DNA of 52,486 bases from an uncultured Lachnospiraceae bacterium (GTDB taxonomy: Bacteria; Bacillota; Clostridia; Oscillospirales; CAG-272), in the NCBI GenBank assembly GCA_964525525.1, contig CAZGHD010000002.1, positions 1 through 52,486 of the forward strand, given 5' to 3'. Position 1 is the stretch's first letter. Every line of letters starts with the position of its first letter. Below are positions 2,517 through 33,789 of the stretch, piece after piece. Both the position numbers and the translations under genes were made by a program. The notes beneath the pieces were generated by a model. It was given only the letters and a program-made list of their open reading frames with translations, made no database searches and had not been told where the DNA came from.

Positions 2517-3413
2517 ATGCTCGGTACTGTATTCAATATTCAACGTTTTTCCCTGTTTGACGGACCGGGTGTGAGAACCGTGGTTTTTCTCAAGGGTTGC
2601 CCCTTACGATGTATCTGGTGCCACAATCCCGAGGGACTTGAAAAAGCGCCCCAGATAATGTACGATCCCACAAGATGTATCGGATGCGGAGAGTGCGCGG
2701 CGGTATGTTCAAAATCTCACGTTATCCGCGACGGCATGCACGGATATGACCGCTCGGTCTGCATCTCCTGCGGAGAATGTACGTCCGCCTGCCCGACCGG
2801 TACTCTTTCGGTCGCGGGAAAATCAATGTCAGTTGACGAGGTTATGGCAGAGGTCATGCGTGACGAAAGTCTATACCGTGAAAGCGGAGGCGGCATTACT
2901 TTGTCCGGCGGCGAACCGCTTTACCAAGGAGAATTTTCCGTTTCGCTGTTAAAATCGGCAAAAGAAAAAGGAATAAGCACCTGCATTGAGACCAGCGGAT
3001 ACGCTTCGCAGGACATCATATCCGAAGTATCAAAGTACACCGACAGCTTCTATTACGATTACAAAGCAACAGGCGACGAAGAACACCGCCGCCTTTGCGG
3101 AGTGCCGCAGACGGTGATACTTAAAAACCTTTCTCTGCTTGACTCGCTCGGCGCAAACGTTACCCTGCGCTGTCCGATAGTTCCGGGACAGAATCAGACT
3201 CCCGAACACATAGCGGGCATTGCGCGCACCGCCGCAGAGCACACGTCGGTCAAGGCGATTCACCTTGAGCCCTTCCACCGTCTCGGTAAATCCAAGGCGG
3301 AAAAGCTCGGTCAGACCGAAGCGTTTGACACCGAGGTTCCAAACCGCGATCAGCTTCTCCGCTATTGCGAAGAGATCAAAGCCGCTTGCGGAAAAGAATG
3401 TATAATAAGCTAA
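2517..3413 (+). CDS. Glycyl-radical enzyme activating protein (radical SAM, PflA family with an extra ferredoxin-like insert)
   Basis: FNIQRFSLFDGPGVRTVVFLKGCPLRCIWCHNPE (CX3CX2C radical-SAM cluster). Two CxxCxxCxxxC motifs (CIGCGECAAVC, CISCGECTSAC). GGAGG RBS. Sits directly upstream of the GRE genes. Confidence 0.92.
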   Translation: MLGTVFNIQRFSLFDGPGVRTVVFLKGCPLRCIWCHNPEGLEKAPQIMYDPTRCIGCGECAAVCSKSHVIRDGMHGYDRSVCISCGECTSACPTGTLSVAGKSMSVDEVMAEVMRDESLYRESGGGITLSGGEPLYQGEFSVSLLKSAKEKGISTCIETSGYASQDIISEVSKYTDSFYYDYKATGDEEHRRLCGVPQTVILKNLSLLDSLGANVTLRCPIVPGQNQTPEHIAGIARTAAEHTSVKAIHLEPFHRLGKSKAEKLGQTEAFDTEVPNRDQLLRYCEEIKAACGKECIIS

Positions 3414-3441
3414 TAACTCGTATTCAGGAGGTATTTATATA

Positions 3442-5766: not shown

Positions 5767-5783
5767 AAAAACAGGAGATCATA

Positions 5784-18800: not shown

Positions 18801-21083
18801 TCCCTCTCCTTTGACAAACTCGAACTCCGGCTGGTTAGCACCCTGTGTTGCGGAGATATAAGAAACGAACTGACCTTTAATATTATTCGCTTCCATACCG
18901 TTGAGCGTAAGGGTGAGTTTAACCTTGGGCTTATTGTTGGGGTCAAAGCTGTCAAATTTTGTTTTATCAGCAGAAAGTATAATGCTGTAAAAGTCTGATA
19001 CTATCGGGTCGTCAACAGAAGTAATATCCTCTGTAGTACCAAACTGGATATTAAGCTGACCTTTTATAGAGCCCGCAGAAAGCACGCTACTATTATCAAT
19101 AACAGAACCGTCTATATACACGATAGCGGTTATTCTGGTAGCTTCATTCTGTGTGAGCTGGGTGATGAAATATGCGTTTTCTACGATGTCGTTACCTTCT
19201 TCATCCGTTCCGGTAACGATAGATTTAGCACGCAACTGAAGCGGAACGAGAACGCGTCCCATATCCTCAAACGCCATTGAGGTATCCATGTCTGCCTGTG
19301 CAAGCAGGGTTCCTTCTTCATCAACGAATGCGACACGCATAGCAGAAAGAACCTGTAGTGCCTGTGCCTGATCTTCAGGAGTTTCGGGATAGAAAATATA
19401 ACAGCTGCCAGAACCCTGCGAAGTACTTTCACCAAGCACGGGGAGACCGGGGTTATCTTCTTCCCAAATACGGTTGACACCTGAATATCCGGTGACTACG
19501 GTTTCGGTCAAGGTGTTTCCATTGTCGTCTTTTACCGGATTGCCGCTTGCGTCTGTTACCGTTCTTATCTCCGTATCGACTTTTCCGGCAAGACCAAGTA
19601 AAGAGTTAGCCGCGTTGGTACGAAGCCAGAAGTCAATAACCATTCCATAGGTATCTGCAGCAACCGCATCGGTAGCGGCAAGGCCGCCTTGTTCAGCTTT
19701 GGCTTTAGCATTATTGCTAGATTCAATTATAGGGTAATTGGTATATTTGGTATTAGTAGGATCTGCTACTACGGTTTTTACACTGGTTCTAATCTCAGTA
19801 AGCTCTACTTCTTGTCCCATAGCTTTTACCTTAACGCCGGAAACAGAAATTTCCCCACCATAAAACCAGTCCATATTCCAAACGAGGCCGCTATTAAGTT
19901 CACATATTTTATTTTGAGCAAATACCAATGACATAAGATCACTTGCACCCAAAGCGCTTGCTTTTGTACCATTAATAGTTGCAGAATTTATATCCGCCAT
20001 TACGTTTATGTATCCACGCATAAGCTCCCAACCAATGGATGTGTTTTTGGTCCACGGATCGTAAACATTGGTATAATAACGGCTATATAAACCATCGGCA
20101 TAAGCTTTAGCTTCAGTACCGTTAAAGGTGACGTGATCCGCCATATATGCGTCAAGTCCTTCAAGGGTGACGCTCTCTGACGCTAAAGTTGATTTTATAG
20201 TTCCGTTATGGAGGTCTTCCATAGTAAATGCCGTGTACGTTTTATTATTTTGATTACAGTATAGAAAATGATATACGTTTGCATTAGCAACGAGAGATTC
20301 TCCGGTTTTATAGAGACAATCTTTGTATGCCGTCATCATTTCGTACACTATTTTAACGTATGATGAGCAATCCTGATCGGTATCATCAATACGATACTGA
20401 AGATATACGCCAGCGAGACCGGTGATACTGTTCATATACTCTTTATTGCCCCAAAGAGTTTTAAACGCGTTGTCTGCCGCAGAATACTTCTCTTTTACCG
20501 CAGTATTAAGGCTAAGCAAAGCAGCATCGCCTGTTACAGAACTATAAGTAACAGAAGAAATTGCGCGTACGCCATATTCAGTGCCATCTTCGGGCACGAA
20601 AAAGGCTTCTGCTCCATCTTTGGTACCATAGTTAGTATATGCAAAGTCTGAAATAATTCCGGAAATACGACCGTCTGCGTTATATTTAACGGAATACAGA
20701 GGCTCTTTGAGAAGTGAGCCGGAGTTAAGAGTTGCCGGACGCAGGACTATTTTATCAAGACCATAGCTTGCATGAGACAAGTTAACAAGGTTACCCCACT
20801 TGAGGTTAGTTTGTGTTATATCTCCGCTACCGTCGGTAGTCGATGTGGGATCCGGTTCAAGACCATCCTTATCAGACAACGCGATCTCGAGGTTACCGTT
20901 GGTTGCTATGGTGGTAGCAAGGCCGTTGACCTCCGGTGCGCGCGACAAAGTAATCCACGCGAAGGATGCGGACACCATCATGGATATTGATATTACAAAC
21001 AGCAGCGCTACTGCCATCACGCGTTCTTTCATGTGCGGCAGAGCTTTTTTATACGCTTGTATCCTTCTTTGTGTTTCAGTCAT
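15831..21083 (-). CDS. Giant (1750 aa) secreted TasA-superfamily-like fibre/adhesin protein with a SipW-type signal peptide and long Ig-like C-terminal extension
   Basis: N-terminus ...VSASFAWITLSRAPEVNGLATTIATNGNLEIAL. Its first ~690 aa are collinear with the 779-aa paralog: NLKWGNLVNLSHASYGLDKIVLRPATLN, YGMVIDFWLRTNA, AIVYIDGSVIDNSSVLSAGSIKGQLNIQFGT. No LPXTG or TM anchor at the C-terminus. Confidence 0.75.
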   Translation of the reverse strand: MTETQRRIQAYKKALPHMKERVMAVALLFVISISMMVSASFAWITLSRAPEVNGLATTIATNGNLEIALSDKDGLEPDPTSTTDGSGDITQTNLKWGNLVNLSHASYGLDKIVLRPATLNSGSLLKEPLYSVKYNADGRISGIISDFAYTNYGTKDGAEAFFVPEDGTEYGVRAISSVTYSSVTGDAALLSLNTAVKEKYSAADNAFKTLWGNKEYMNSITGLAGVYLQYRIDDTDQDCSSYVKIVYEMMTAYKDCLYKTGESLVANANVYHFLYCNQNNKTYTAFTMEDLHNGTIKSTLASESVTLEGLDAYMADHVTFNGTEAKAYADGLYSRYYTNVYDPWTKNTSIGWELMRGYINVMADINSATINGTKASALGASDLMSLVFAQNKICELNSGLVWNMDWFYGGEISVSGVKVKAMGQEVELTEIRTSVKTVVADPTNTKYTNYPIIESSNNAKAKAEQGGLAATDAVAADTYGMVIDFWLRTNAANSLLGLAGKVDTEIRTVTDASGNPVKDDNGNTLTETVVTGYSGVNRIWEEDNPGLPVLGESTSQGSGSCYIFYPETPEDQAQALQVLSAMRVAFVDEEGTLLAQADMDTSMAFEDMGRVLVPLQLRAKSIVTGTDEEGNDIVENAYFITQLTQNEATRITAIVYIDGSVIDNSSVLSAGSIKGQLNIQFGTTEDITSVDDPIVSDFYSIILSADKTKFDSFDPNNKPKVKLTLTLNGMEANNIKGQFVSYISATQGANQPEFEFVKGEGSTWTADVTFNGPGNFKLRNIRINGVDYPLEESNVITVEIPGLTVESLTCNGWDGASSKKVMTADSYYQLASTLTLKTSTGMTASKVQGVFAHDGGQNVTVDYVQTNNGWVATTNFTTSGKYTMTYVIIDGSYVPLDADMHKSLELFLGLKTQVFLSLPMTEAYAESLELIENKIAAETAEYKTANPNATEEEIAAAITAINEKYADEKQALYDAEYGKEGKFPMTATSTGYTITYDASEPLFMDVSCTITDDKGNLMTNLSDVVLHYGIGASVVNRLDSNMTWNAYSERYEGEFTLNRPGAYSFQNLEIGTGENKSIIYSATAAPKLTAISPVPMEYVGAKINGVDINPGSVTDIGATYREMAVALKNAESASVLFEIKNEDEGDKVYTFNGSSIGTDEATGITKFVPVILNENGGVGSSGLPHDGKWTIKGMKVANVFYNGTYYDGDTETDGATGWLDLGEFLENDEGNLTTDFFTTVKFSVENQPGTLLDGILSPNYYGAFMVDHKVENMTITITDYFNNAIEGAEVNLTYKWDSSTNGVFTVPSGTTLPNTEFSATKSNDGKTFAMPEVMNFQLHGTYKCTFEIKIGDDTYDLSRFEVQGGNTFTANDIRVTWTLPDVKITAVTDATKDSISNPTFSVNLGDYTYAWNELSGVQNYFEDYYANVYISAKSNTEYSCPNITTKISNFGKANSASFVVMNGEKRQDNSTEYDREYTFIKEGEESTQQIGAAGTGWAIVTYGWAESALHQTVDSIKMVYDNVTYTVNLAHDVIINQQHSPLYLTLDVDTTNVDMPNTISATDSKGNAFTVSTGGTSPAYVISPDGRQFNVSLPNITKSVNRTVDSYSEADYSGNENGTAKGEYINYEYTKQELNGCGYDNVTYYDIYQKYERIGTVSGTRTIYTDTYTAVNWKVGEFSVTSGASVSISSTTTSIANITLNTVIKEQSELSGSTVVQYMYKDVSKEQKYKNGNVVVTDKADIVTEWTLVE

Positions 21084-21129
21084 TTAAGTGCCTCCTGTTT
21101 TCAGTACAGTGCTGTGATTTATGCTAAAA

Positions 21130-23490
21130 TCAATAGTAGATAAACAACGGGATCTCTATACGGCGGAGTTCGACGCCGTTATGATCGCGGAGAAGGGTTA
21201 TTCGGTAACTTCCCGCGGCGGCGCTTTGTGCCGCGTTCGAGATAGTGAGAGTTTCTGAATTTTCATCAGCTGCGACTGTGATCTCTATACCAAACGAATC
21301 GTCAGCCGTCACTCGCTCGGTAACGCCGTCCTTTATAACGAGTCGCTCGACTATTATCTCCATTTTTTCATCCGATCCGGTTATCGGAAGAGAAAGCGAA
21401 CCGGATTTCGCTATTATCATTTTCGCCGCATTGAAATCGGCGGTAAGCGCTTTTCTCGTCGGAGAGGTCGCCACGCTTCCCTCCTCGATTTTGCGGTTTC
21501 CGATATATGCGGATGCAGAAATGATTATTCCCGTATTCTCGGTATCGGGGATTTGCACGGTGATAAGCTCAACCTGTGAAAAATCAAGCGTAAGCCGGAT
21601 TTTTTCTCCGGGCTGCACCGAATGCTTCAAGGTAACGTCACCTGCAAGGGTAACGAACTCATCACTGTTTATACTGTATTTAGTCCCCTTGGGAAACGCA
21701 CCGCCGTTGAATCTGAACTCCATGGTCTCAGAATCAAGAGGCGCGGTAAGATCAAGGGTAAGATATTCCTCTTTTGCAAAGGTCTCAGGACAGGATTCCA
21801 CGTCGAACAAGGAATCCACAGTTTCTTCGTAAATCTCGCTCGAAAAACTATCCGTAGCAAACTCCACACCGCAGTTATACGCTTTTACATCAAGACTAAT
21901 GTCTGTAATATCGGTCATATCAGCACGGGTAAAATCAAAGGTAACCGTCAGCCTCTCTTCAGAAAAGACAGGCACGGAAATTATAGCTTCATCGCCGAGC
22001 GTAACCGGTTCATTACTGTCTACGAAGTAACTTGTTCCTACCGGGAACTTACCGCCACCGTAAAACAGCTCCAGCGTATCAGCACCTTTGGGAGCGGTGA
22101 TATAGATCACCGTTTCCTTGTTGCTTGCTACTTTTTCCGGAATATTATCCGCGTCAAAAATTTCGGTTTCTTTGAGTTCATATCCCGGAGAGAGTTCAAG
22201 AGTGTCAACGTAAGTAATTCCGGCATTTTCTGCTTTTGCCGTGATGTAAATCTTTTCAGGAGCCTTCATATTCGTCCCTGAAAAGTCGATGAAGATTTCT
22301 TCGGGATAACTATCAAAAACAGGAACGTATATATAGTCATCAATCAGATAATAATTATTTTCATCTATACAGTAACTCGCTCCTTCCGGGAACGAGCCGC
22401 CGTTGTACGTGATATACACGTGCTGTGCTCCGTTTGCGGCGCTTACGTTTATTTTAGCAAATTCGGTCCAAATAAACGAAGTATTCTCAGCAGAAAGTAT
22501 GTCTGCCTCTATGCCTTCAAGTTCAGCAGGAGAATCTTCCGCCGTATCGGACACGTCTACCAAAACAGGTTCGGTATTATTAGGAATCAGTTTTATTTTT
22601 ATGTCTGCCCACATTATCGGAGGGGCGTCTGCATTTATAATATTCCCCTCGGAGTCTTCCTTGGGTGTTTCTTTCCAGTTTATTCGAACGGTAACCGTGG
22701 TTTCTTCGGTAATTTCAAGCGCAGATGCGTTCGGAGTTAACGTCAATTTTGCTATGTAACCGATATCGGTAACCGTTATTTCAGCGGTATCAAGTTCAGC
22801 TTTAATAAGCCCTGAGTCTGAAACGCACTCCAATACACCGCTTACTTCGCCTGCGTCAAGAGAGAAGGAAATATCCTTGGTTCTGTAGGACAGAGAATTC
22901 ATAACCCAGTCTTCAAGCACTATGGTATGACCGTTTCTGTCAAGATAGTTACTGGTGAGTCCTACCGCGTCCTCGGTAGATATCTGAACGTCCTTGGGAC
23001 GCAGAACAACAACGAAAGTCGCTTTTAGCTCAGGCAGCTCGTCGTCGTCCGGAATCCATTTTACGTCAACGTACACAGTGATCTCTTCCTGCAAGGACAA
23101 CGCCGGATAGCCGAGCTTAAGCAGCAATTCAGCATCGCAACCCTTTTCATCTACGATAAGCTCGGTTTCATCAAGCAAAGGGATAAGGCAGTCGGAGCTT
23201 GACGAACAGGTCAATTTTCCGTTGATTTTTTTCGGAGCTGTTATAGTTATGATTTCGCTTCTGCTTGATTCTATGCTTGCGTTTATGATCCAATCTTCAA
23301 CTATTACCGTAGTACCTTCTTCTGTCAGGTAATTGCTTTCCTGCTTTTCTGAATACGGAAGGTATACGTTTTTCCAGGACATGGTATTGAACACGCGCGC
23401 CTGCGTTTCATTAACTGCAAAAAACGCGGAGAGAGAGACAGCGGCTACGCAAAAGCACAAAACAGCTATCTTGGCGTATCTGCTTTTCAT
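21130..23490 (-). CDS. Secreted repeat protein (786 aa), fibre-locus accessory
   Basis: Signal peptide MKSRYAKIAVLCFCVAAVSLSAFFAV. Two ~110-aa repeats (TVIVEDWIINAS.../HTIVLEDWVMNSL...), then three ~100-aa repeats containing (Y/F)NGG.FP.G(A/T).Y. Confidence 0.7.
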   Translation of the reverse strand: MKSRYAKIAVLCFCVAAVSLSAFFAVNETQARVFNTMSWKNVYLPYSEKQESNYLTEEGTTVIVEDWIINASIESSRSEIITITAPKKINGKLTCSSSSDCLIPLLDETELIVDEKGCDAELLLKLGYPALSLQEEITVYVDVKWIPDDDELPELKATFVVVLRPKDVQISTEDAVGLTSNYLDRNGHTIVLEDWVMNSLSYRTKDISFSLDAGEVSGVLECVSDSGLIKAELDTAEITVTDIGYIAKLTLTPNASALEITEETTVTVRINWKETPKEDSEGNIINADAPPIMWADIKIKLIPNNTEPVLVDVSDTAEDSPAELEGIEADILSAENTSFIWTEFAKINVSAANGAQHVYITYNGGSFPEGASYCIDENNYYLIDDYIYVPVFDSYPEEIFIDFSGTNMKAPEKIYITAKAENAGITYVDTLELSPGYELKETEIFDADNIPEKVASNKETVIYITAPKGADTLELFYGGGKFPVGTSYFVDSNEPVTLGDEAIISVPVFSEERLTVTFDFTRADMTDITDISLDVKAYNCGVEFATDSFSSEIYEETVDSLFDVESCPETFAKEEYLTLDLTAPLDSETMEFRFNGGAFPKGTKYSINSDEFVTLAGDVTLKHSVQPGEKIRLTLDFSQVELITVQIPDTENTGIIISASAYIGNRKIEEGSVATSPTRKALTADFNAAKMIIAKSGSLSLPITGSDEKMEIIVERLVIKDGVTERVTADDSFGIEITVAADENSETLTISNAAQSAAAGSYRITLLRDHNGVELRRIEIPLFIYY

Positions 23491-23513
23491 AATCTATCTC
23501 CCTCCTTTTGGTT

Positions 23514-24122
23514 TTAATTATCAGCTTGAACGTAAGTACCGGTCACGCGCAGATCAAGCAAGGTTGCTTCCACATTTCCCTCTATAGTGAGAGTAATATT
23601 TTCAAATGAGAATTCCTCGCCTTTGAGCGTGAACGTTAGTTCTTTTCCGTCGTTACCGTAAAATCTGTACACCCATCCGGGACCGGAGGTAGAATACAAA
23701 TAGCTGTCCTCTTTGATTTCTTCAGGTTCTCCTGTATAAGTTGCATCGCCATACGAAAGCTTTACCGTAATATTATCCGAGCTTTCGATACTGGATCCCG
23801 CAATAAGAAATACGGTTACCGCCTGCGTACGATTTGCAAACTGCTCGCGCGAGGTACCGTTAGCAATACTGAACTCGAGCGTTGCCGAGTCTGGTCCTTG
23901 CAAAAAACTGCTGCTGTCAAAATTTTTCCACCCGTCGCCCGTGTCAGCGATATGCTCGCCGTAAACGTAAACTGCGTTTCCCGATTCATAGGTAAAACGA
24001 TACGATTTATCGGTAACGATATTCATAAAATACCGCGCAAAAGCCGGTGTTATTACTAAAACGAGACAGGCAGCCATAAGCAATATGGTAAGCAAAAGTA
24101 TCTTTTTTCTGTTTTTGCCCAT
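23514..24122 (-). CDS. Small (202 aa) TasA/camelysin-size secreted protein with a SipW-type signal junction
   Basis: MGKNRKKILLLTILLMAACLVLVITPAFARYF... gives a basic N-region, a hydrophobic core and a xAFAxYF junction. Size and beta-rich composition resemble single-domain TasA-family proteins. Confidence 0.6.
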   Translation of the reverse strand: MGKNRKKILLLTILLMAACLVLVITPAFARYFMNIVTDKSYRFTYESGNAVYVYGEHIADTGDGWKNFDSSSFLQGPDSATLEFSIANGTSREQFANRTQAVTVFLIAGSSIESSDNITVKLSYGDATYTGEPEEIKEDSYLYSTSGPGWVYRFYGNDGKELTFTLKGEEFSFENITLTIEGNVEATLLDLRVTGTYVQADN

Positions 24123-24168
24123 CGCCCGTCTCCTTTCATTTTTGTTTATAAGTGGTTATACATTGCCG

Positions 24169-26166
24169 TTACTCTGCGGCAGTAACGATAAACACGCCAT
24201 CAGCTTCGGTACAAATATATCCTTCATTCAAGTAATCACCGGATACGTTCGTACTGAATTTACCGCCGGTGATGAACCAATTAACGTTGTCAACCAGCTG
24301 GAACTCACGTACCGCAAAAGCCTTTTCATCCGCACAGCTTATAGTACTGTTACCGGATATAGTAATATTTATATTGTGACCGTAATTCGTTTCGGCGTAT
24401 ATACCGTCGCCGGTGTCGGTCCATCCGCTCTTTCCGAGAGGCTCGACAGGTGTAGATATATCATCACCGGTTCCCGTTCCGCGAACGGTACTGTCAATAA
24501 CGGTAAGGTCGCCGCCCTTCATCGCGATACCTGTAATACCGCTGATAACGCTACCGCCACTGACGGTTACGGTGCCGTTCATCTGCGGGTTATATATTCC
24601 GGCGTAAAGGCCTTCTACTTCACTTGATATTATCTGAACGACCGTGCCGTTATTTGTGGCATTACCGTTACCGAGAACGCCCGCGTAACCACCTTTTAAC
24701 TTACTGTTTTGGATTATAAGCTGGGTGTTTCCTTCTGACCGAGTACCGTCACCGTTTACTCTGACCGCAGATTCGGTTGCGGTAAGCTTACTGTCAACTA
24801 TTCTGACGACCGAATTGTCTCCGTTTTCACTCTGAGTCGCGTTGTCATGGATATAGAAAGCAACCTTTGAATTACTTACAGTTACGTTGTTCAACGTAAC
24901 GTGGCTGCCGATAGAATCAAACGCGGTACCGCCGTCTTTAGCCGCTACGGTTCCGTCAAGAACCGTCAATACTGTTCCCGAGCCGGTGGAGAACACAACG
25001 TCAGACTCTGTGGTGGTTATAGTATGCCCGTTAAGATCAAGCACTGCCGACTTTACAGCCTCAATAACTACCGACTCTTCAATAGTCATATTATTTGACA
25101 GGCTGATAATGTTACCGTTGCTGTTATTTAATGCATCGGTAAGTGCTTGTACGTCTGCATTGGGTTCAAGAGTAATCGTCTCCTGTTTCATCTGCTGACC
25201 GGTAAGAGTTATTCTTGCCTGATAGCTTTTCTTGGTTGACTCACTCTCAAGCGCATATGCGGTATCCCAAGCTGTATGAGCCTCTATCTCTCCGATGGTA
25301 CAAAGATAGAGCCATATATTATTTTCCTCGTCTATAGGATAGCACGCCGGAGTTCCTTTAGTTGTAACAGTGTAGCCGTTTTGATCTATAAGACCGTCGC
25401 CGCTGACTTGGTACGCGCCCTTATATCCGTCAGACGCGGTAAGCTCTGCCAAAAACGTATTAACGTCTTTTTCGCCTATATAAGCAAGTCTTCCGCTTTC
25501 GGAATCAAACTTTGCACTGTCAAGGTCGTACTCTACCGGGCGGAGATATTCTTCAACCGACACGGTATTGCCGTTTTCGTCAGCGGTGTTATTTACGCTT
25601 CCCACGAAATAATAACCAAGCACGTCGTAGACCCATTCCCATTTGATAAGAACGTCGGTCTGAACTTCGTCTGTCAGTACAAGCTCGTTTCTGCCGTAAA
25701 GAACGTACGAATATCCTTTAGTACTGCTGAGGTACACCTTATCAACCTGCTCGCCGTTTACGCTTGCGGTTTTGTCAGCGTAAAAGTATATTCTACGCTG
25801 CATTTCGGTACTGCCCATCGCCTGCTTGGATATATTGACACCAATAGAGCTTACTACGTCGCTCTCGTTGGTAACGCGGATATTCACTATTCCGCTATCA
25901 CCCGGTAAAGCATTAATAGGGGTACTGTCATCAACGATAACGTCTCCGTTAAACCCCCACGCTTCTGCCTGGAAGGTAAGTCCACCGACCGAAATGGTAT
26001 TAGTATACCAAGCGGTAGTGAGAGCAAACACAAGCGTTGCCGTAACTAAAATGATAAACACGATAAGTCCGGCAGCCTGCAGGTATATATTCCGTTTTGC
26101 GGAGCGGAGACGGCTACTTCTGCTCTTCCACTCCTTCTTTTTCTTCGGTATCTGCATTTTCAGCAC
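24169..26166 (-). CDS. Secreted protein: TasA-like N-domain fused to a right-handed parallel beta-helix (PbH1 repeat) domain
   Basis: ATLVFALTTAWYTNTISVGGLTFQAEAWGF junction. PGDSGIVNIRVTNESDVVSSIGVNIS is a TasA-like strand. C-terminal half has repeats such as LDLNGHTITTTESDVVFSTGSGTVLTVLDGTV, VTLNNVTVSNSKVAFYI and LIIQNSKLKGGYAGV. GTG start overlaps the sipW-1 3' end by 53 nt. Confidence 0.7.
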   Translation of the reverse strand: MLKMQIPKKKKEWKSRSSRLRSAKRNIYLQAAGLIVFIILVTATLVFALTTAWYTNTISVGGLTFQAEAWGFNGDVIVDDSTPINALPGDSGIVNIRVTNESDVVSSIGVNISKQAMGSTEMQRRIYFYADKTASVNGEQVDKVYLSSTKGYSYVLYGRNELVLTDEVQTDVLIKWEWVYDVLGYYFVGSVNNTADENGNTVSVEEYLRPVEYDLDSAKFDSESGRLAYIGEKDVNTFLAELTASDGYKGAYQVSGDGLIDQNGYTVTTKGTPACYPIDEENNIWLYLCTIGEIEAHTAWDTAYALESESTKKSYQARITLTGQQMKQETITLEPNADVQALTDALNNSNGNIISLSNNMTIEESVVIEAVKSAVLDLNGHTITTTESDVVFSTGSGTVLTVLDGTVAAKDGGTAFDSIGSHVTLNNVTVSNSKVAFYIHDNATQSENGDNSVVRIVDSKLTATESAVRVNGDGTRSEGNTQLIIQNSKLKGGYAGVLGNGNATNNGTVVQIISSEVEGLYAGIYNPQMNGTVTVSGGSVISGITGIAMKGGDLTVIDSTVRGTGTGDDISTPVEPLGKSGWTDTGDGIYAETNYGHNINITISGNSTISCADEKAFAVREFQLVDNVNWFITGGKFSTNVSGDYLNEGYICTEADGVFIVTAAE

Positions 26167-26926
26167 TTTGTTTTAGCTCCTCTAATAACTCGCTGCGCAA
26201 TCGCTCGCACATCTGTTCGTAAGTTTCTTCAGCCTCCGGCTGTTTTTCTTTTTCTTTGCCGGGCTTTTTATCTATTCCGTCAAGCTCTTTCGTGATAGCT
26301 TCAAGCTCGTCACGAAGATTTCCTATAACGTCCTTCATAACTAATACGCCGATAAGCATACACGGGAATACTATGCAGGCCCAAAAGCCTATCGAACTCG
26401 TAAGGAAATTAACTATGCCTGCAAAAAAGTTTCCTTTACCCGTGGTGAAAACCACTTTTCCGACAAGGTTATCTTCTTCAACGTACAGTGCATCCGCCAC
26501 GACGTTAGCGTCGCCCTTGGTTTCAAGATATACGTGTCCGTTCTCGTTTTCAAACTGCGCTATAACCCTGTGTGTTATAACTTTACCTACCATTCCGGTT
26601 TCCTTGGAACGGAAATTTATAACGTCTCCCACGTCGATATCGTCTATCGGAACCTTCTTTGAAATAAGCAACGTTCCGACCGGAATATCCGGCTCCATAC
26701 TTCCGGTTGCTACGCGGAACATACTGTATCCGCCGACCGAAATATATCCTTTACTGAGTACCTGGCTGATAACCCAGATGCAAAGGATTATGGAAAGCAC
26801 CAAAAGGCAGGTGATTATAACGCCGTTTCTTTTATGCTTTTTCTTTATTTCAACGCTTTCTTCCTCATTTTCGGAAGATTCGCAATTCTCGTTCAATTCA
26901 TTTTCCGAATTAATATTTTTATCCAT
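26114..26926 (-). CDS. sipW: Signal peptidase I, archaeal/ER type (S26B, SipW-like), copy 1, with acidic N-tail and charged C-terminal tail
   Basis: VATGSMEPDIPVGTLL (Ser nucleophile), VITHRVI (His), ETKGDANVVAD. Flanking TM helices. C-terminal 70 aa are E/K-rich. Confidence 0.85.
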   Translation of the reverse strand: MDKNINSENELNENCESSENEEESVEIKKKHKRNGVIITCLLVLSIILCIWVISQVLSKGYISVGGYSMFRVATGSMEPDIPVGTLLISKKVPIDDIDVGDVINFRSKETGMVGKVITHRVIAQFENENGHVYLETKGDANVVADALYVEEDNLVGKVVFTTGKGNFFAGIVNFLTSSIGFWACIVFPCMLIGVLVMKDVIGNLRDELEAITKELDGIDKKPGKEKEKQPEAEETYEQMCERLRSELLEELKQSAENADTEEKEGVEEQK

Positions 26927-26950: not shown

Positions 26951-28336
26951 TTATCTGTCGTTACTTCCGGCAAGTTCGATATTAACTATAAAATTAGATA
27001 TATCGCCGTAGTTTACGCAGTCGGCATCCTGGCCCTCTATCCAGATAAACATACGTATTCTCTGCGGAACGTTTTTCTCAAGAGTGGTTATTATAGCGTC
27101 GTTAGTAGCGCCGCTGAGCTCAATACCGCCCATTTCAACTTCGGAAACCATTCCGTTTTGAGCAGACGTATAAAGATTGTTTATGGATTTAACAAATCTG
27201 CCGCGGTTAACGTACGGCGAGATGATATTCTGCAATCTGTTTGAGTAAAAGGCTTCCGACAGCTCTTCTGCGGTTGCATCGGTGTTGGTTTGGCCGTACA
27301 TATAGGTAGCAAATTCCTGCTCAATAACGCTTCCGACACCGTTTGCGGAGTTTTTCCACTTGGTTGCCAGCTGCACGGTAAGCGAGGTAGGATGATCTCT
27401 GTCGATAACGTCAACTTCCGTGATAACGTTGTCTATTATACCGAGCGGTTTGGTTATCTCGTAATACGCCGGACTGTATCCGCCGTCCTTTGAAACGTGA
27501 AGGTCTCCGTTAGGCTCATATATGGTAAATTTATTCTGCGCGGCAGAATAAATCGACAAGTCTTCTCCTGACGACTGATATTTTCCTTTAAGTAACGCAT
27601 ATCTTCCGTCGTAATCGGTACTTGCGGCATAAGCGAGATTACTGTCGTAATCAGCCCAGTCGCTATTGACGAGAAAGCCTATGCGAAGCGATGACGCGGC
27701 AGACGCATTGGCAGACTCAAGTCTGTACACGCCCGGATTTTCTTCGTCCTCAACGACTTCCATTCTATCGATAACGAAACTTCCCTCGTTACCGCTGATG
27801 TCGCCGGTAGAGATACGGATATCGTATCCGTCACCGGGAGAAACTACCCAGAAATCAAGGTACACGTAGTTTCCTATCATACTGGTAGTCTGCTCATCAG
27901 GGGAAATATTAGCATATTCAAGCTTTCTGTCGATCAAAAAATCCGAAACGTCTTTAATCTGTCCGAGAAGAGCAAGTCCGTCCTGAACTTCCGTGTCGTC
28001 CTCCGAATAATAGTCGGGGCGGATCCAGTATTCACCGTCAACCGTTGACACGGGAGTAAGCGCCGCAAGATCGTAAAGGAAAGAATACGCGCCGTTTTTT
28101 GAAAGATCAAGCGTCTCGGAAAACGCGCCGGGATAGTGATATATCTGCCCGTTTTTCTCAACTGTCATATCTGCAGCAACTTTAATAGTGTCACTGCCGC
28201 CGATACTGATCTGAATACCATCAACCTCGGGCGTAGCCGAAATAGTAAGCCAAGCATAAGAAGACATGGCAACAAGAGTTGCAGCCACAACTATTGCCAT
28301 TATGGAAAATATTAGTTTGGCAATGAGCTTATTCAT
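26951..28336 (-). CDS. Secreted TasA-superfamily-like protein (461 aa) with SipW-type signal peptide
   Basis: MAIVVAATLVAMSSYAWLTISATPEVDGIQISIGG. Internal LRIGFLVNS and FTIYEPNGDLHV. C-terminal IRMFIWIEGQDADCVNYGDISNFIVNIELAG, shared with the 332-aa and 417-aa proteins. Confidence 0.7.
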   Translation of the reverse strand: MNKLIAKLIFSIMAIVVAATLVAMSSYAWLTISATPEVDGIQISIGGSDTIKVAADMTVEKNGQIYHYPGAFSETLDLSKNGAYSFLYDLAALTPVSTVDGEYWIRPDYYSEDDTEVQDGLALLGQIKDVSDFLIDRKLEYANISPDEQTTSMIGNYVYLDFWVVSPGDGYDIRISTGDISGNEGSFVIDRMEVVEDEENPGVYRLESANASAASSLRIGFLVNSDWADYDSNLAYAASTDYDGRYALLKGKYQSSGEDLSIYSAAQNKFTIYEPNGDLHVSKDGGYSPAYYEITKPLGIIDNVITEVDVIDRDHPTSLTVQLATKWKNSANGVGSVIEQEFATYMYGQTNTDATAEELSEAFYSNRLQNIISPYVNRGRFVKSINNLYTSAQNGMVSEVEMGGIELSGATNDAIITTLEKNVPQRIRMFIWIEGQDADCVNYGDISNFIVNIELAGSNDR

Positions 28337-28358: not shown

Positions 28359-30200
28359 TTATTGTTGGTTGTTTCTCATAGCAAGGCGCTGACGGCGTTC
28401 TGCCTCGCGCTGCTCTGCCTGCGCTTTCAGCTCGTTTTCGTAGTCAACGCGCTCCCGCTTTTTAAGCGGAAGATTAGATTCAAAGAATTTAAATTCATCG
28501 TAGTATACGCGCAAAAGCTCTTTTTCTTCGGCAATCTGCTTTTCAAGCGCTTCTTTTGCATCGCGTTCAAGCCGGGCCTGACGTTCAAGCTCAAGCTGTT
28601 TCTCTTCGGCAAGCTGACGGCGGAGATTTTCTTTTCTTTCCTTCTCTTGCTGCAGGATTCGCTCTTTCTCCTCCTGCCTCAGCTTCTTCTTTCTCTCTGC
28701 CGCTTCGAGCTTTCTCTGCTCTACCGCTTCTATAAGCTGAGCCGCGTCTGCAAAATCTTCTTTCTCTGCGAGATATTTTGAGAGATGCTTATCTCTCGCT
28801 TCCATATGTTCTTTTAAGTGTTTTTCAAAATGCTTTAATTCTTTACGGAAGATGTCTCCGCGACGGCGATCCTCTGCCTCGCGCATCATACGCTCGTGGA
28901 AAAGCCGCTGTTTTTCCGCTTCTTTTTCCTGGCGGATACGCTCGCGCTCGGCTTCTTTTTCCCGCTTTATCCGCTCGCGTTCCGCTTCCTTTTCGCGTTT
29001 TATGCGCTCTTGTTCTTCTTTTTTCTTTTGCGCCTGTTCTTCCACCAATCTGCGGCGCTCTGCCGCTTCTTCAGCCATGAGCTGTTCCTTGGTGAGTTCT
29101 TCTATCAGAACCTTGCGGATCTCAACGTCGGGAAGGTCGTAATCCTCGGTAAGCTCCTCAATGATCTCGCGAACGAATTTAGGTTTAAGCGCACGCTGTT
29201 TTTGTTTAGGTTTAACGGGTAACGTACGTTCAGACTCATCTTCAAGATAACCCTTGAGGATCATATAATTAAACAGGATATTATGGTATATATCGCGTTC
29301 AAAGACCTCGTTGATCTTCGGGCTCTGCTCGATAACCCTTATAGAATAACCTATGTCGCCGTAACCGCGGAGGAACTCAAGAAGCTGTGAGACCTTACGG
29401 TAATTCGGGTTTTTCTTGAGCACGTTGGTCTTGACGATATTACCCTTGACACGCGGAACCTTTTCCATTTGTTTTGCAAAAGCAGTGTTCATAAAAACTG
29501 CAAGCAAACGGTATATTTTCGAAATACGTCCGAATACCTCCGCATTTCTATCATCGGTATCAATCGCAGACTCGGTCTCCTTTATATGTATAAACATATC
29601 AACGTGAACCGCTTCTGTCATGCTCTGCATATCGGAACGCACTTTGAGCTTCGCGCCAAACTCATCACCCATCGCTTCAAAAAGCGCGTCGTGACGGATT
29701 TTTACGAAATGGTACGCCATCTCCATCGTAGTAAATACGAGACGGTTTTCATAGAGATTTTCGGTATCCTCACGAACCTTTTGCATAAGTCTTTGAGGAC
29801 GGACGTCTCCAGTCATATCATTGTAATCCTCAACGTAAGCCGCATGGCTTGTAAGGTGGCGGACAACGTCGGAATTAGTCTTCTTCGCAATAGATGCGTT
29901 AACGATTATCTCATCCTCTTTGATGATATTTCGAGGATTTCCGATAATGTTCTGCATTGCGGGAAGAGCATTTTCTATCTGATCGACCCAGTTAAGATCG
30001 ACCGCTTTTTCCAGCCTTCTGTTAGAAAACTGAAACTCGTTATCCGCTTTTGACACCGCGTCCATAAAAAACTCGTAAAATTCCGTGCTTGATATGGCGC
30101 GCAAAATACTTTTGGTAAACTTCTGATATATAGGATCGATCAGAGAAGTATTTGCTTTATTCTTTTTTGTATTCTTGGATTCTGCCACTATCTTCTCCAA
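28359..30200 (-). CDS. Partner of the McrB-like ATPase: McrC-N-terminal-like (DUF2357-like) domain with no visible nuclease motif, fused to a ~280-aa E/K/R coiled coil
   Basis: 613 aa. ENLYENRLVFTTMEMAYHF resembles the McrC/DUF2357 'ENR' block. I see no PD-(D/E)xK motif. From about aa 335: EELTKEQLMAEEAAERRRLVEEQAQKKKEEQERIKREKEAERERIKREKEAERERIRQEKEAEKQR... to the end. 14-nt gap after the ATPase gene. Confidence 0.5.
   Translation of the reverse strand: MEKIVAESKNTKKNKANTSLIDPIYQKFTKSILRAISSTEFYEFFMDAVSKADNEFQFSNRRLEKAVDLNWVDQIENALPAMQNIIGNPRNIIKEDEIIVNASIAKKTNSDVVRHLTSHAAYVEDYNDMTGDVRPQRLMQKVREDTENLYENRLVFTTMEMAYHFVKIRHDALFEAMGDEFGAKLKVRSDMQSMTEAVHVDMFIHIKETESAIDTDDRNAEVFGRISKIYRLLAVFMNTAFAKQMEKVPRVKGNIVKTNVLKKNPNYRKVSQLLEFLRGYGDIGYSIRVIEQSPKINEVFERDIYHNILFNYMILKGYLEDESERTLPVKPKQKQRALKPKFVREIIEELTEDYDLPDVEIRKVLIEELTKEQLMAEEAAERRRLVEEQAQKKKEEQERIKREKEAERERIKREKEAERERIRQEKEAEKQRLFHERMMREAEDRRRGDIFRKELKHFEKHLKEHMEARDKHLSKYLAEKEDFADAAQLIEAVEQRKLEAAERKKKLRQEEKERILQQEKERKENLRRQLAEEKQLELERQARLERDAKEALEKQIAEEKELLRVYYDEFKFFESNLPLKKRERVDYENELKAQAEQREAERRQRLAMRNNQQ
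28904..29009 (-). repeat. In-frame ~33-bp tandem repeats (about 3 units) encoding (E)KEAERERIKR
   Basis: Direct reading of ttccgcttctttttcc..gcggatacgctcgcgc / tcggcttctttttcccgctttatccgctcgcg / ttccgcttccttttcgcgttttatgcgctc. Confidence 0.7.
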
Positions 30201-30214
30201 CCTTTCTTATTTTA

Positions 30215-31837
30215 TCAGCTCATCTTCTTTAAGCGTTCTACGTATTCTTTGCAGATCGCCATTACGTTCTTACCGAACAACTTGTCAAGATAAGTATTGA
30301 ATTTTGTAAGCTCATCTTTCATAAATCCGAGGCTCAACGACTCGAATTTTCTCAAAACCTTTTTAGCAACTATAAAGTCAACTGCCTGTATTTCGGTACC
30401 TCCGCACGCGATAAAGCAAGGAACGTAGTCTCTTATCTGCTTCATAATACGGTTACCGAAAGCAAGTCTGAAATTCTTTATAAGGTAAGCGTTAAGCTCC
30501 TCAAGTTTGTCAAGCGAATCCTGAGATATGGGATACATCTCTTTCGCTTCAGCAAACATTTTGAGTATGTGATCGGTAGATACTCTAATTCCCGGTGTCA
30601 GCTCACACTCAAATGCATCAGCGCGGCTGTCAAGGTCGATCGGTATTGCACGGTCGTAAACCTTATCCGCAACGGCAAAGGTCGAGTCGTCGTTGTTGAT
30701 GGTACCGATAAACCACAGGTTATCGCTTATCTGAACCTTACCCGCCTTGATAAGGCACGGGTCGTTATCCCAAGTTGCCGAGACTATATCTATTACCTGG
30801 TCTTCCCTTCTCGGAAGCTCAAGAGTAGAAAGCATTTCTGCAAAGTAATACTCAACACGCGCGATGTTCATCTCGTCCAGGATCATCAAGTGAGGATCAC
30901 GGAAGAAATTCGCTTCGTACACGGCGCGCAGGAAGTCTGTCTCAGAATACTTTTTAGAGAATTCGTTAAAGTAACCGTAAAGCTCGGTTCTCTCACGCCA
31001 TGACGGCTGAACCGCGATAACCGACGTATCCTTACCGATAAATTTACCGAACGCATAAGGAAGCGAGGTTTTACCCGTACCGGAAATACCCTGAAGAATT
31101 ACCATTCTCGCGGTTCCGAGCGCGGCGATGAAGTAACGCATCATGTCGATATCGTAGTACAGCTTAAGCTGAGACGCCGCAAATTTACGGAACTGCTCAC
31201 AGAACCCTGCCAGAGTAACGTCGTTATCGTATTCAGGAGCAACGTACGAAGTTTTATAGAAATTATCAACCGCAGTCAAACGGAAGAATCTGCTGTCCTG
31301 CGGGTCAATGCAAGGCGACTCGAAGGTATTACGGTTATCGTTGGGAACGAATTCCACTCCGCCGTCCTCATCATTGTCCGCCTCGGTCTCAGGCTCAGCT
31401 TCTGCATCGGTCTGTTCTTCGTCCTCCACAAGAGGCACATCAATACCGTCTGCACTTCCGGTAAGTTCAGCCATTCGCATGGCAAGAAGCTTATCCTTCT
31501 CGTAATTGGCGCGAATAAGATCTCTTTGCAGATTTCTCACCTGCTTTGCCATTTCGTCATACTTTTTAGCGGGAATATAACGGCGGAATATCTTACGCAG
31601 CAGCTTTGCAAAAAGAATACAAAGCACCACGATAACAACCACGAGCAGAACGTTGACGACAATCATCAGCACCCACTCAAGCGGTGTAAATTCTCCGTTA
31701 TACTCCTGTATGACCTTCATACGAAGCGGGAAATTAAGCAAATAATATAAAAATTTGAAAATCGAACCAATAGCTTCACCAAGGAATCGGAACACACGTC
31801 CCATATCCTGATAGAAGTATCGAAAAAAGTTATCCAT
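30215..31837 (-). CDS. Membrane-anchored McrB-family (AAA_5) AAA+ NTPase
   Basis: Walker A ILQGISGTGKTS. Walker B HLMILDEMNIARVEYYFAEMLS. McrB signature WFIGTINNDDSTFAVADKVYDRA (compare GTMNxADRS...RR). N-terminal TM helix EWVLMIVVNVLLVVVIVVLCILFAKLLRK followed by a coiled and acidic linker (DEEQTDAEAEPETEADNDEDGG). Confidence 0.8.
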   Translation of the reverse strand: MDNFFRYFYQDMGRVFRFLGEAIGSIFKFLYYLLNFPLRMKVIQEYNGEFTPLEWVLMIVVNVLLVVVIVVLCILFAKLLRKIFRRYIPAKKYDEMAKQVRNLQRDLIRANYEKDKLLAMRMAELTGSADGIDVPLVEDEEQTDAEAEPETEADNDEDGGVEFVPNDNRNTFESPCIDPQDSRFFRLTAVDNFYKTSYVAPEYDNDVTLAGFCEQFRKFAASQLKLYYDIDMMRYFIAALGTARMVILQGISGTGKTSLPYAFGKFIGKDTSVIAVQPSWRERTELYGYFNEFSKKYSETDFLRAVYEANFFRDPHLMILDEMNIARVEYYFAEMLSTLELPRREDQVIDIVSATWDNDPCLIKAGKVQISDNLWFIGTINNDDSTFAVADKVYDRAIPIDLDSRADAFECELTPGIRVSTDHILKMFAEAKEMYPISQDSLDKLEELNAYLIKNFRLAFGNRIMKQIRDYVPCFIACGGTEIQAVDFIVAKKVLRKFESLSLGFMKDELTKFNTYLDKLFGKNVMAICKEYVERLKKMS

Positions 31838-31865: not shown

Positions 31866-32717
31866 TTACTTTGAAGCGTCCTCGTCGTTTTTGGGAGCAT
31901 CGTCATCCGACTTGATGCCCATGCTCTGCATAAGCTCGGCCTTGAGCTTTTCGCGGAGCTCTGCCTCCATCTTCGCGCGCTCTTCTTCTTTTGCCGCATT
32001 GAGCTTCTTCTCCTGCTCGGCGAGCATATCCTCCGTGCGGCCGCGCTCCTGCTCGTACTTGATGCGGTTCTTTACGTTCTGATACTCAAACAGTACGCGG
32101 AAGAACTGTACAAGGTAGAAAAGGAAGAATATAAATACGGGAATAACTACGACTATAAGGAATCCCGTACTGTCCTGAAGATAGTCAAATACCTTACCGA
32201 TACCGCCTACTTTGAAGCGGTAAATACCGACGACCTCAGACTCGTGAACGGTCAGAGGGTCGACTGCGGTGTTCGCTTCACCCTTTGTGGAGAAGATAAG
32301 GTATCCGCCGCCGTCGTAAATCTCGTAAATTTTATGCGTATTGAGCACTCTTTCGCCGTTGATAACAGTCCAGTAGGTGATAATATCGCCTATTTTCAGA
32401 TCATCGGGGTCTGCCGCGGTATCAAAAATAAGATCGCCGGGCTTGAGTATCGGGTACATTGATTCGGTCTGAATGGAGTACATTTGAAGTCCGAATATGC
32501 TGGGAACTCCGTTACCCGAGGTGTTTACGTAAGAAATGTAGGTAGAAATCGCCGCCAGTATAATAGCGAAAACAAGCACTACGTTGATGATGGTACTTGC
32601 AATACGCTGTCCTTTGCTCGCTTTTTTCACGACCTCGACTTCTTCTTCGCCGTTTTCGGCGGACTTAACTTCGAGTTCTTCTACGTTCGGGCTCTCGGTT
32701 TGTTTTTTCGCTTTCAT
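31866..32717 (-). CDS. sipW: Signal peptidase I, archaeal/ER type (SipW-like), copy 2, with coiled-coil C-terminal tail
   Basis: SIQTESMYPILKPGDLI (Ser), LNTHKIY (His), STKGEANTAVD. N-terminal and C-terminal TM helices. Tail EQEKKLNAAKEEERAKMEAELREKLKAELMQ. Confidence 0.8.
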   Translation of the reverse strand: MKAKKQTESPNVEELEVKSAENGEEEVEVVKKASKGQRIASTIINVVLVFAIILAAISTYISYVNTSGNGVPSIFGLQMYSIQTESMYPILKPGDLIFDTAADPDDLKIGDIITYWTVINGERVLNTHKIYEIYDGGGYLIFSTKGEANTAVDPLTVHESEVVGIYRFKVGGIGKVFDYLQDSTGFLIVVVIPVFIFFLFYLVQFFRVLFEYQNVKNRIKYEQERGRTEDMLAEQEKKLNAAKEEERAKMEAELREKLKAELMQSMGIKSDDDAPKNDEDASK

Positions 32718-32790: not shown

Positions 32791-33789
32791 TTATTCTATC
32801 GGTACGAGACCGGACTGACCGTCCGACTTGGTGGCAAACTGCACGTTTGCCTGAAGCTGAGACTCATGTCCGATAACGTTGGTGCAGTCCTTATCCTGCC
32901 CTTCAAGCCAAACGTAAAGACTGACCTTTGCAAGCTCGTCGTTAGTGATTGTAAACAGCTCGGTATCCGTAAGGAATTCACCAAGCGAGCGGACGACGAG
33001 TCCGTTTTGCACAGGGTCATTCTCGATCCATGAGTTCATAGTTTGCGTTATAATAAACTCTTCGGGACGCAGGGTCGCGGCGCCGTCTTTGCTCGGCGTC
33101 GGAGCATAACCCGTAGTTCCGTCGACGTGATTGTCACAGTTAGGTTCGTATATGTAAAATACGGCGGGAATATCTTCTTTGAGGTTACCCTCAAGGTCGG
33201 TCTTTTCGATCAGAAGTCCTATGCGGATAGCAAGCTCCGCGCCGTGACTGCCGTTGTCATGGCTGATGGTTTCGGGATTCCAAACAGGGGTTCCTATTAC
33301 GTAGGTACCCGCGCCTTGAAGTCCTTCTTCGACTTCTATCGCGGAAGTGAGGCTGACGTTGACCTTCTGTTCACATCGGGCGTAGAAAACGCCTTTCATG
33401 TAGTATCCGTCAGCGTTGTCTTTGTTTGCGTTGCGGGAATCGGTAAGCGGTTCCCAAATATCGGTTAAGCGTCCGTCAATACCGTAGGTAGCCGCGTAAA
33501 AACGCTGGTCTGCTTCTGACCAGGTTATAGGACGCAGGGGTGCGGTCTCACCGCAAAGCTCCGCCATGTTAAGCTGCAGCTTCCATTCGGTTGCCAGCGG
33601 GTCGGCGGAGAGTTCAAGGCCGGAGGGCGAGTTAACGTATATCGCCATATCGCTGACCTCAGGAGTTCGGCTTATAGAAAACCAGGTGTAGGTCGCCACC
33701 GAAAACAAGCTGAGCAAAACTAAAAGCACGTATAAGTAAATTATGGTGCGTATGCGTCTACGCCTTTGTTTTTGTTCTGTTTTTTTCAA
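32791..33789 (-). CDS. Secreted TasA-superfamily-like protein (332 aa) with SipW-type signal peptide
   Basis: TTG start with AAGGAG RBS. LLSLFSVATYTWFSISRTPEVSDMAIYV. AELAIRIGLLIE, FYIYEPNCDNHV. C-terminal VSLYVWLEGQDKDCTNVIGHESQLQANVQFAT. Confidence 0.7.
   Translation of the reverse strand: MKKTEQKQRRRRIRTIIYLYVLLVLLSLFSVATYTWFSISRTPEVSDMAIYVNSPSGLELSADPLATEWKLQLNMAELCGETAPLRPITWSEADQRFYAATYGIDGRLTDIWEPLTDSRNANKDNADGYYMKGVFYARCEQKVNVSLTSAIEVEEGLQGAGTYVIGTPVWNPETISHDNGSHGAELAIRIGLLIEKTDLEGNLKEDIPAVFYIYEPNCDNHVDGTTGYAPTPSKDGAATLRPEEFIITQTMNSWIENDPVQNGLVVRSLGEFLTDTELFTITNDELAKVSLYVWLEGQDKDCTNVIGHESQLQANVQFATKSDGQSGLVPIE

Follow-up and report, generated by a model that had tools for sequence, protein, structure and literature searches.

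Why should a GTPase of the McrB type and its McrC-like partner be encoded between two signal peptidases? Among restriction enzymes driven by GTP, McrBC is the textbook case. The question is raised by a stretch of 52,486 nucleotides (nt) from an uncultured Lachnospiraceae bacterium (contig CAZGHD010000002.1 of assembly GCA_964525525.1), called the window below, in which the gene for an AAA+ GTPase of 540 amino acids (aa) and the adjacent gene for its partner stand inside a cluster of genes for SipW-type signal peptidases and signal-anchored secreted proteins. An initial annotation, made from the letters of the window, had offered two hypotheses: either an enzyme derived from McrBC was co-opted into a fibre or secretion operon, or a degenerate or novel defence module hitch-hikes there. 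From the analysis described here it is probable (roughly 0.6 by our own estimate) that the pair forms an integral nucleoside triphosphatase (NTPase) module of the cytoplasmic membrane in a SipW-dependent extracellular fibre or pilus system, and that it is of the class called CoCoPALM by Bell et al. (eLife 2024).

Is the pair a resident or a passenger of this cluster? Two collections of loci were compared: a genome set, for which one genome per species was scanned (312 species with a relative, 80 loci kept), and a metagenome set of 80 contigs, seeded with a subfamily only 40-50% identical. Linkage was counted over the 160 loci of both sets and both subfamilies, with testable loci as denominators. 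The partner gene lies directly downstream of the GTPase gene in every one of them (77/77 in the genome set, 68/68 in the metagenome set, 145/145 together), and a SipW gene lies directly upstream in 76/77 and 61/66, respectively, or 137/143 together. A second SipW gene is found within 6 kb downstream in 65 of 69 genome loci and in 31 of 53 metagenome loci. At essentially every locus of the genome set with enough flank, the genes are arranged in the order p416 - HD/EAL - p417 - p779 - p332 - SipW - GTPase - partner - p461 - SipW - p665 - p202 - (p786) - 1750-aa protein, so that a cluster of about 14 genes is syntenic across 80 species-level genomes. The metagenome subfamily retains its core, p417 - (subunit) - SipW - GTPase - partner - (SipW). 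By their names, nearly all of the 80 genome loci are from Clostridia (Oscillospiraceae, Lachnospiraceae, Acutalibacteraceae, Faecousia, Vescimonas and others); the source is in almost every case a metagenome-assembled genome (MAG), and look-ups for named or cultured carriers of the cluster returned only MAG entries called 'hypothetical protein'. In hundreds of Clostridia both genes are locked between SipW-type peptidases and the secreted proteins of a signal-anchored family. The earlier judgement that this is no randomly inserted restriction module is upheld by these counts, as is the co-occurrence with sipW genes that it had asked about.

The members of the cluster are not equally conserved. 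When the median identity to the window protein is ranked in the genome set, the GTPase comes first with 67.5%, followed by the upstream SipW (SipW_a, 64.8%), the partner (58.0%), the HD/EAL protein (56.6%, 50 loci), p332 (49.4%), p461 (40.7%) and p779 (34.8%). The outer flanks of the window carry genes such as those for glycyl-radical enzymes and the activase of these, for an ABC transporter and for a leucine-rich-repeat protein of the BspA type, and are neither a defence island nor a mobile element. Such a pattern of conservation and linkage is what would be expected of a core component of a machine, the opposite of a hitch-hiking defence gene. Because of the fixed linkage of the GTPase gene to partner and SipW genes, the synteny, the conservation of the GTPase and the housekeeping flanks, the hitch-hiking defence module of the initial annotation is unsupported; moreover, no nuclease or other effector domain was found in those cluster proteins that were scanned, and different families of Clostridia keep one stable gene order.

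What kind of protein is the GTPase? Its motifs GISGTGKTS (residues 250-258), ILDEMNIARVEYYF (319-332) and GTINNDDST...DRA (378-397), which had been read from the start as an McrB/AAA_5 core, are invariant in its homologues; GISGTGKTS fits the Walker A pattern GxxGxGK[ST], and the Walker B motif, ILDEMNIAR at residues 319-327, fits the pattern hhhDE.N..R. A HMMER search with the GTPase yielded 8210 representatives at E <1e-3 and 741 at E <1e-30, and 61 diverse ones were used to build a profile. Residues G250, G253, G255, K256, D321, N324, R327, E329, N381, D383, S385, T386 and R396 are invariant in these 61 relatives; in the signature N381-N-D383-D384 the last position is variable, and nearly every relative listed has either D or E there. 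When the PDB was searched with this profile, the only significant match was McrB of E. coli (6hz4, 6ut6, 7vsr; E about 3e-5), and hhalign aligned the profile to E. coli McrB at 96.95% (E 1.3e-10), in an alignment of 167 columns that begins at Walker A and reaches the Arg finger. Pfam AAA_5 is recognised in 49 of the 61 relatives (E up to 0.1); the window protein itself stays below the threshold (17.4 bits, gathering cut-off 22), and a direct PDB search with this single sequence gave no match. Judged from these motifs and profiles, the 540-aa protein is an McrB-family AAA+ NTPase of the NxD branch, in which all catalytic residues are kept. A model of the GTPase made with AlphaFold 2 (AF2) from an alignment of 22 sequences, 70-80% identical, was discarded, since the predicted local distance difference test (pLDDT) score of the core, residues 242-410, was below 50.

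The DNA-binding N-domain of canonical McrB is absent from the GTPase, and no domain was matched in its residues 1-245 by Pfam. In its place the protein has, as the initial annotation had proposed, a transmembrane (TM) helix and an acidic linker, with a basic helix between them (Table 1), and the membrane insertion of the N-terminal segment is borne out by hydropathy, in which this TM helix is the single strong TM segment. One or two TM segments are retained in distant relatives as well. The discarded AF2 model has a helix, H90-126, after the TM segment. Since the TM segment is followed by 13 K/R, the positive-inside rule places the NTPase domain in the cytoplasm, and by this reasoning the GTPase is tethered by one N-terminal TM helix with its NTPase on the cytoplasmic side. 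The first 54 residues, moderately hydrophobic, contain the conserved stretch MDNFxRYFYQD.GRVFR...NFP.RM. As a separate observation, the N-terminus of NxD-type McrB-like GTPases (P0275-P0300 and others) was seen in three forms: with one or two TM segments as in this family, polytopic with four TM segments (550-700 aa), or soluble with a long coiled coil (700-870 aa, CoCoNuT-like). Of the four-TM form, no mention was found in the available text of Bell et al. (2024).

The partner resembles McrC in its N-terminal part. Its residues 1-340 match the Pfam family DUF2357 (PF09823) with E 1.5e-7 and 31.3 bits (gathering cut-off 23.3), and the motif YENRLVF, which had first suggested a McrC/DUF2357-like N-domain, lies at residues 150-156; the full-length partner gave no Pfam match. 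DUF2357 is equated with the N-terminal domain of McrC by Bell et al. (2024). In a subfamily of partners only about 20-30% identical, 20 of 24 match the same family, and many close homologues have a precomputed DUF2357 annotation and are called 'DUF2357 domain-containing protein' by NCBI. In a diverse alignment of partners, IDxxWVxAIE, IRNPR, KHLAQHT, TPSKILNV.KEES..YENRF, VRPPxMRTN.I.KN and LWQFIESY stand out as conserved blocks. As for the nuclease, no conserved D...(D/E)xK was found between residues 175 and 340 in this alignment, and no nuclease family was matched in Pfam scans of the partner, in agreement with the earlier failure to see a PD-(D/E)xK motif. H205-I-K207 (HxK) was considered as a remnant of the nuclease and rejected, being unconserved in the diverse alignment. 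The McrC-like assignment of the partner draws on its Pfam family and gene position, and on this footing the partner carries the N-terminal (DUF2357) domain of McrC, no longer has the nuclease, and in most cases runs out into a long charged helix. Some partners have an extra conserved domain of about 250 aa before DUF2357 (L088:9650-10729, L090:1795-2874, L128:2287-3366).

This charged helix had been described as about 280 aa of E/K/R coiled coil. That it is charged and helical holds: 52% of the tail is E/K/R, AF2 gives it a pLDDT of 70-89, and residues 376-613 contain one Pro and one Gly. Its length is rather about 240 aa, and the coiled coil is doubtful, as no heptad periodicity of hydrophobic residues was detected (p=0.34 against shuffles, in a crude test). 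Because the heptad signal is missing and many pairs of opposite charges are spaced i/i+4 in residues 376-430, the tail looks, at least in part, like an ER/K single alpha-helix and not like a classic coiled coil. A minority of partners, only 367-376 aa long (e.g. L129, L138, L145, L157), have no charged tail.

Where, within 30186..30200 of the minus strand, does the partner begin? Its TTG codon has a purine-rich stretch flush against it, while GTG at 30188, four codons further, is preceded by GGAG and 6 nt and yields MAESK..., and the start MA is common to all 21 of 21 aligned partner homologues. Because of this spacing of the ribosome-binding site and the MA start of the homologues, the true start is probably the GTG, which makes a protein of 609 aa and leaves a gap of 26 nt, instead of the 14 nt noted before, to the GTPase gene, whose ATG is itself preceded by a good ribosome-binding site (AGGAG and 6 nt).

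Both peptidases that flank the pair match the NCBIfam models sigpep_I_arch and SipW (E 1e-22 to 1e-26), and both paralogues have E/K-rich cytoplasmic C-terminal tails reaching 65-75 aa past the last TM segment. These tails far exceed those of a minimal SipW; at other loci, the whole protein of some relatives measures 175-208 aa. Each secreted protein of the cluster has a single hydrophobic segment, at the N-terminus, and where aligned these proteins share [YF][AT]WF[ST] right after this segment and WxEGxDxDC...F at the C-terminus. For p332, the source gene call (P0423) is 285 aa without the signal anchor; its homologues are 330-332 aa, and therefore the longer form is supported. Among these proteins p417 is a version anchored in the membrane: it heads the core module in both subfamilies, and its K/R-rich cytoplasmic N-terminus is followed by an internal TM segment and an extracellular domain of the secreted family. 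Because the domain of the secreted family stands behind a cytoplasmic N-terminus and a TM segment, p417 is a candidate membrane anchor or initiator. The HD_5/EAL protein is probably a regulator of the cluster linked to cyclic di-GMP (c-di-GMP), to judge from its domains, and its conservation hints at c-di-GMP control of the system. The genes from 15831 to 48040 of the window lie on one strand with short gaps. A terminator scan of the window gave counts as in shuffles, with promoter-like sites just modestly above them, and is uninformative.

Table 1. Features of the window and of the two proteins (window positions, or residues where stated)
Feature	Position	Strand	Basis or remarks
McrB-like NxD-type AAA+ GTPase, 540 aa	30215..31837	-	ATG start; alignments, hhalign, hydropathy and charge
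GTPase, conserved N-terminal segment	residues 1-54		alignment
GTPase, TM helix	residues 56-74		Kyte-Doolittle 3.55
GTPase, basic helix	residues 80-125		13 K/R
GTPase, acidic linker	residues 126-166		16 D/E, no K/R
GTPase, conserved pre-AAA segment	residues 167-245		
GTPase, AAA+ core	residues 246-410		Walker A 250-258, Walker B D321/E322, N381-x-D383, R396
GTPase, helical lid	residues 411-540		
McrC-like partner without nuclease, 613 aa from TTG	28359..30200	-	DUF2357 match, alignments, AF2
Partner, DUF2357 domain	about residues 30-173		Pfam PF09823
Partner, conserved mixed alpha/beta region	to about residue 340		
Partner, invariant acidic motif EELTEDYDLPDVEIRKVLIEELTKEQLM	residues 348-375		
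Partner, charged helical tail	residues 371-612		AF2 helices H371-480, H490-612
SipW-type signal peptidase I, paralogue a	31866..32717	-	sigpep_I_arch 7.5e-23, SipW model 4e-24
SipW-type signal peptidase I, paralogue b, charged C-terminal tail	26114..26926	-	NCBIfam models
Secreted p461, putative SipW substrate or fibre subunit	26951..28336	-	N-terminal signal anchor, YAWLT; C-terminal WIEGQDADC
Secreted p332, putative SipW substrate or fibre subunit	32791..33789	-	signal anchor, YTWFS; C-terminal WLEGQDKDC
Secreted p779, putative major or large subunit	33876..36215	-	N- and C-terminal motifs as in p461 and p332
p417	36437..37690	-	K/R-rich N-terminus, TM 150-168, extracellular domain with WLEGDDPDC
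HD_5 (HD-GYP-type) and EAL protein	37690..39138	-	HD_5 4e-13, EAL 1.3e-7
p665, p202, p786 and 1750-aa protein; conserved, secreted	15831..26166	-	N-terminal signal anchor each
Members with the motifs of the secreted family	32791..33789, 26951..28336, 33876..36215, 36437..37690, 15831..21083	all -	shared N- and C-terminal motifs
2521-aa protein	40475..48040	-	C-terminus GDVNGNGRVENNDAV...DTNRNGRIDNNDAV resembles a pair of dockerin-type calcium-binding repeats (read from the translation); repeated Cys-containing modules upstream of this end
Two tandem glycyl-radical (PFL-like) enzymes, radical-SAM activase, BspA-type leucine-rich-repeat protein	2517..8099; 12643..14421	+; -	beside the cluster; ordinary chromosomal context

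To which known system does such a pair belong? Either of the two hypotheses of the initial annotation had been thought to be new; this very architecture has already been named by Bell et al. (2024), in one paragraph that defers the analysis to a future paper. An NxD followed by D/E defines, in the same paper, the branch that holds both CoCoNuT and CoCoPALM. The text of the supplements of that paper has no CoCoPALM entries, and in the later literature no follow-up paper on CoCoPALM was found; the pair belongs to a class which is named and is itself uncharacterised. The shared features are a McrB-like GTPase of the NxD type with a module of a TM segment plus a helix fused to its N-terminus, a DUF2357 homologue of McrC with a long helical extension (usual, not universal, in the class), and a tight association with a signal peptidase gene, SipW being present here on both sides. 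The differences are that the reported FtsB homology was not reproduced here and that the 'coiled coil' of the partner has no heptad signal. Thus, the window pair fits each testable feature of CoCoPALM except the FtsB homology, and no test contradicts its membership.

With the McrBC type IV restriction enzymes of E. coli and Thermococcus (6HZ4, 6UT6, 7VSR), the pair shares Walker A, Walker B (DExN..R), the signature motif, the Arg finger, and a partner from the McrC N-domain family encoded directly downstream. It differs from them in having a TM anchor in place of the DNA-binding N-domain, NxD in place of the NxxD signature, a partner without PD-(D/E)xK nuclease, and a place in a secretion or fibre cluster, not among restriction-modification or defence genes. 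By its domains the pair is not a canonical McrBC, which would require the DNA-binding domain and the nuclease. CoCoNuT (CnuB/CnuC) and the PADLOC defence candidate PDC-M26 share with the pair the NxD branch, the helical extensions on the McrB and/or McrC homologues, and the frequent loss of the McrC nuclease. However, CoCoNuT GTPases are soluble proteins whose coiled coils are hundreds of residues long, whereas the window GTPase is anchored in the membrane and its helix is only about 45 aa; and an inactive McrC in CoCoNuT is always paired with HEPN or other nucleases, none of which was found in the window partner or the neighbours scanned. Without a long coil on the GTPase and a nuclease partner, the pair is, on sequence grounds, not a CoCoNuT. 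Nor is it a PDC-M26 system: only the model of the A gene, PDC-M26A, matches, at E 5e-43 and over the AAA core only (profile positions 314-439 of 724), and the partner has no match in PADLOC. As for the neighbours of the pair, the tapA-sipW-tasA operon of Bacillus subtilis likewise encodes an archaeal-type SipW beside signal-anchored secreted substrates, which have an aromatic motif just past the hydrophobic segment. In the window cluster, in contrast, the substrates match neither the TasA nor the camelysin profile, two SipW paralogues with long charged tails are present, and there are up to 8 or more substrates, some longer than 1700 aa. The Bacillus operon is not known to contain an NTPase.

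How might an NTPase serve such a system? In solved McrBC, six McrB subunits form a ring, and the N-domain of McrC sits in its pore and stimulates GTP hydrolysis. By analogy with these structures, the GTPase of the window may form a hexameric ring under the membrane, hung on six stalks of helix and acidic linker, and the DUF2357 domain of the partner may enter this ring and stimulate hydrolysis. From the gene context, hydrolysis or nucleotide switching would then organise, gate or power the cleavage by SipW and the hand-over of signal-anchored subunits to a growing fibre, and the partner, both SipWs and p417 would use their charged tails as spacers or docking elements. A restriction motor, minus DNA binding and nuclease, would in this manner be re-used as an assembly platform or engine.

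Several points weigh against this reading. The functional role of the pair is drawn from gene order and conservation, and the 'fibre' itself, as well as the 'TasA-like fibre subunits' of the initial annotation, from the pairing with SipW and the N-terminal motif: SipW genes do stand on both sides, as had been said, and the TasA likeness was not confirmed, as the secreted proteins matched no TasA, camelysin or other entry in Pfam, NCBIfam or PDB. The SipW-cognate signal model TIGR04088 was matched by 2 of 20 secreted members, at E 0.04 only, and the 598 homologues of p332 are all 'hypothetical protein' where named, with a Pfam domain in 0 of the 120 listed. Structure comparison did not help either. 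Foldseek with the discarded AF2 model of the GTPase gave only non-significant AAA+ proteins (MCM and RavA; McrB at rank 16, E 4), and with the AF2 model of the partner (pLDDT 69, moderate) its best PDB match had E 0.36, with neither McrC nor a nuclease among the results; the McrC fold is thus unconfirmed, and co-option into a fibre or secretion operon is backed by gene context only. By hhalign the partner N-domain aligned to E. coli McrC with 0.2% probability (E. coli McrC belongs to a Pfam family other than DUF2357, of McrBC type), and a PDB profile search with this N-domain found no match. The lengths of the partner and the SipW tails do not co-vary over 152 loci (Spearman rho 0.02 and -0.12, not significant), which therefore removes one easy argument for a contact between the tails. 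It is also to be noted that, of its annotated relatives, those closest to the GTPase core (PDC-M26A) are defence candidates, and that TasA-type fibres in Bacillus are not known to need an NTPase.

Does the ring do work, or does it only keep time? In its strongest form, which we can put forward only tentatively, the module of the fibre system would be a true motor, in which an McrBC-derived, GTP-powered ring in the cytoplasm drives a Sec/SipW-dependent surface fibre of a Gram-positive bacterium; it would be the first such NTPase-driven system and a restriction enzyme re-used, and the ER/K helix together with the tails of SipW and p417 would form a lattice of rulers and docking sites under the membrane. 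Alternatively, although we hold it to be rather unlikely, the pair might be a GTP-gated regulator or scaffold that does no mechanical work: a switch or timer, dependent on nucleotide, by which the two SipWs are recruited or released, or which, together with the HD-GYP/EAL protein, couples the output of fibres to the state of the cell. Because an McrC subunit occupies the pore of McrBC (6UT6, 6HZ4), threading of a substrate through the ring is unexpected, and a long charged ER/K-like helix without heptad signal resembles a spacer or ruler; in addition, a protein of the c-di-GMP type is conserved in the cluster, and some lineages, those with partners of 367-376 aa, dispense with the tail. Against a mere switch, none of the catalytic residues, the Arg finger among them, varies over a very wide family, which argues for real turnover, and no other cluster gene is as conserved as that of the GTPase. 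The data in hand do not separate the motor from the switch.

Could the pair still defend the cell, now as a guard of the fibre or pilus? Pili are common phage receptors, and a degenerate or novel module of the McrBC/CoCoNuT type might sense a phage through the surface structure and alter the envelope by a non-nuclease effector. The core of the GTPase lies in the NxD branch shared with CoCoNuT, and its match to PDC-M26A points in the same direction. We nevertheless regard this as highly improbable: neither a nuclease nor HEPN nor any other effector domain was seen in the partner or the neighbours scanned, PADLOC leaves the partner unmatched, the pair keeps an invariant position in one conserved 14-gene cluster over 160 loci with its flanking genes co-conserved, the GTPase is the best-conserved member, whereas defence genes usually turn over fast, and the window flanks are of the housekeeping kind. 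The least probable explanation is a division or envelope factor, in which an FtsB/DivIC-like TM-plus-coil would bring the ring to the septum or to sporulation structures and the SipW substrates would be septal, spore or sheath proteins: Bell et al. (2024) do report FtsB homology of the N-terminal domain, and the architecture, TM then short helix, is the same, but FtsB/DivIC was not among the families in the Pfam results for the N-terminus and 61 relatives, hhalign of the N-terminus to E. coli FtsB gave less than 1% probability (with a single-sequence template, which is insensitive), and family scans and flank annotation showed no gene for division or sporulation in the cluster.

What is added here to a class that had been named is a map of the cluster, a quantitative linkage, a ranking of conservation, a corrected start codon, the ER/K-like tail, the motifs of the substrate family, and the versions of NxD GTPases with 1-2 TM segments, with four, or soluble. 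For annotation, pipelines that search for defence systems may mislabel these GTPase genes of fibre clusters, because their AAA core matches PDC-M26A so well. For the biology of uncultured gut and rumen Clostridia, the motor of McrBC and its activator, without anything related to DNA, are found hard-wired into a large putative surface-fibre cluster. Should this module indeed power or gate assembly, it would explain the building of SipW-type fibres whose subunits exceed 1700 aa, and it would offer a case of exaptation in which a defence system came to serve the biogenesis of the cell surface.

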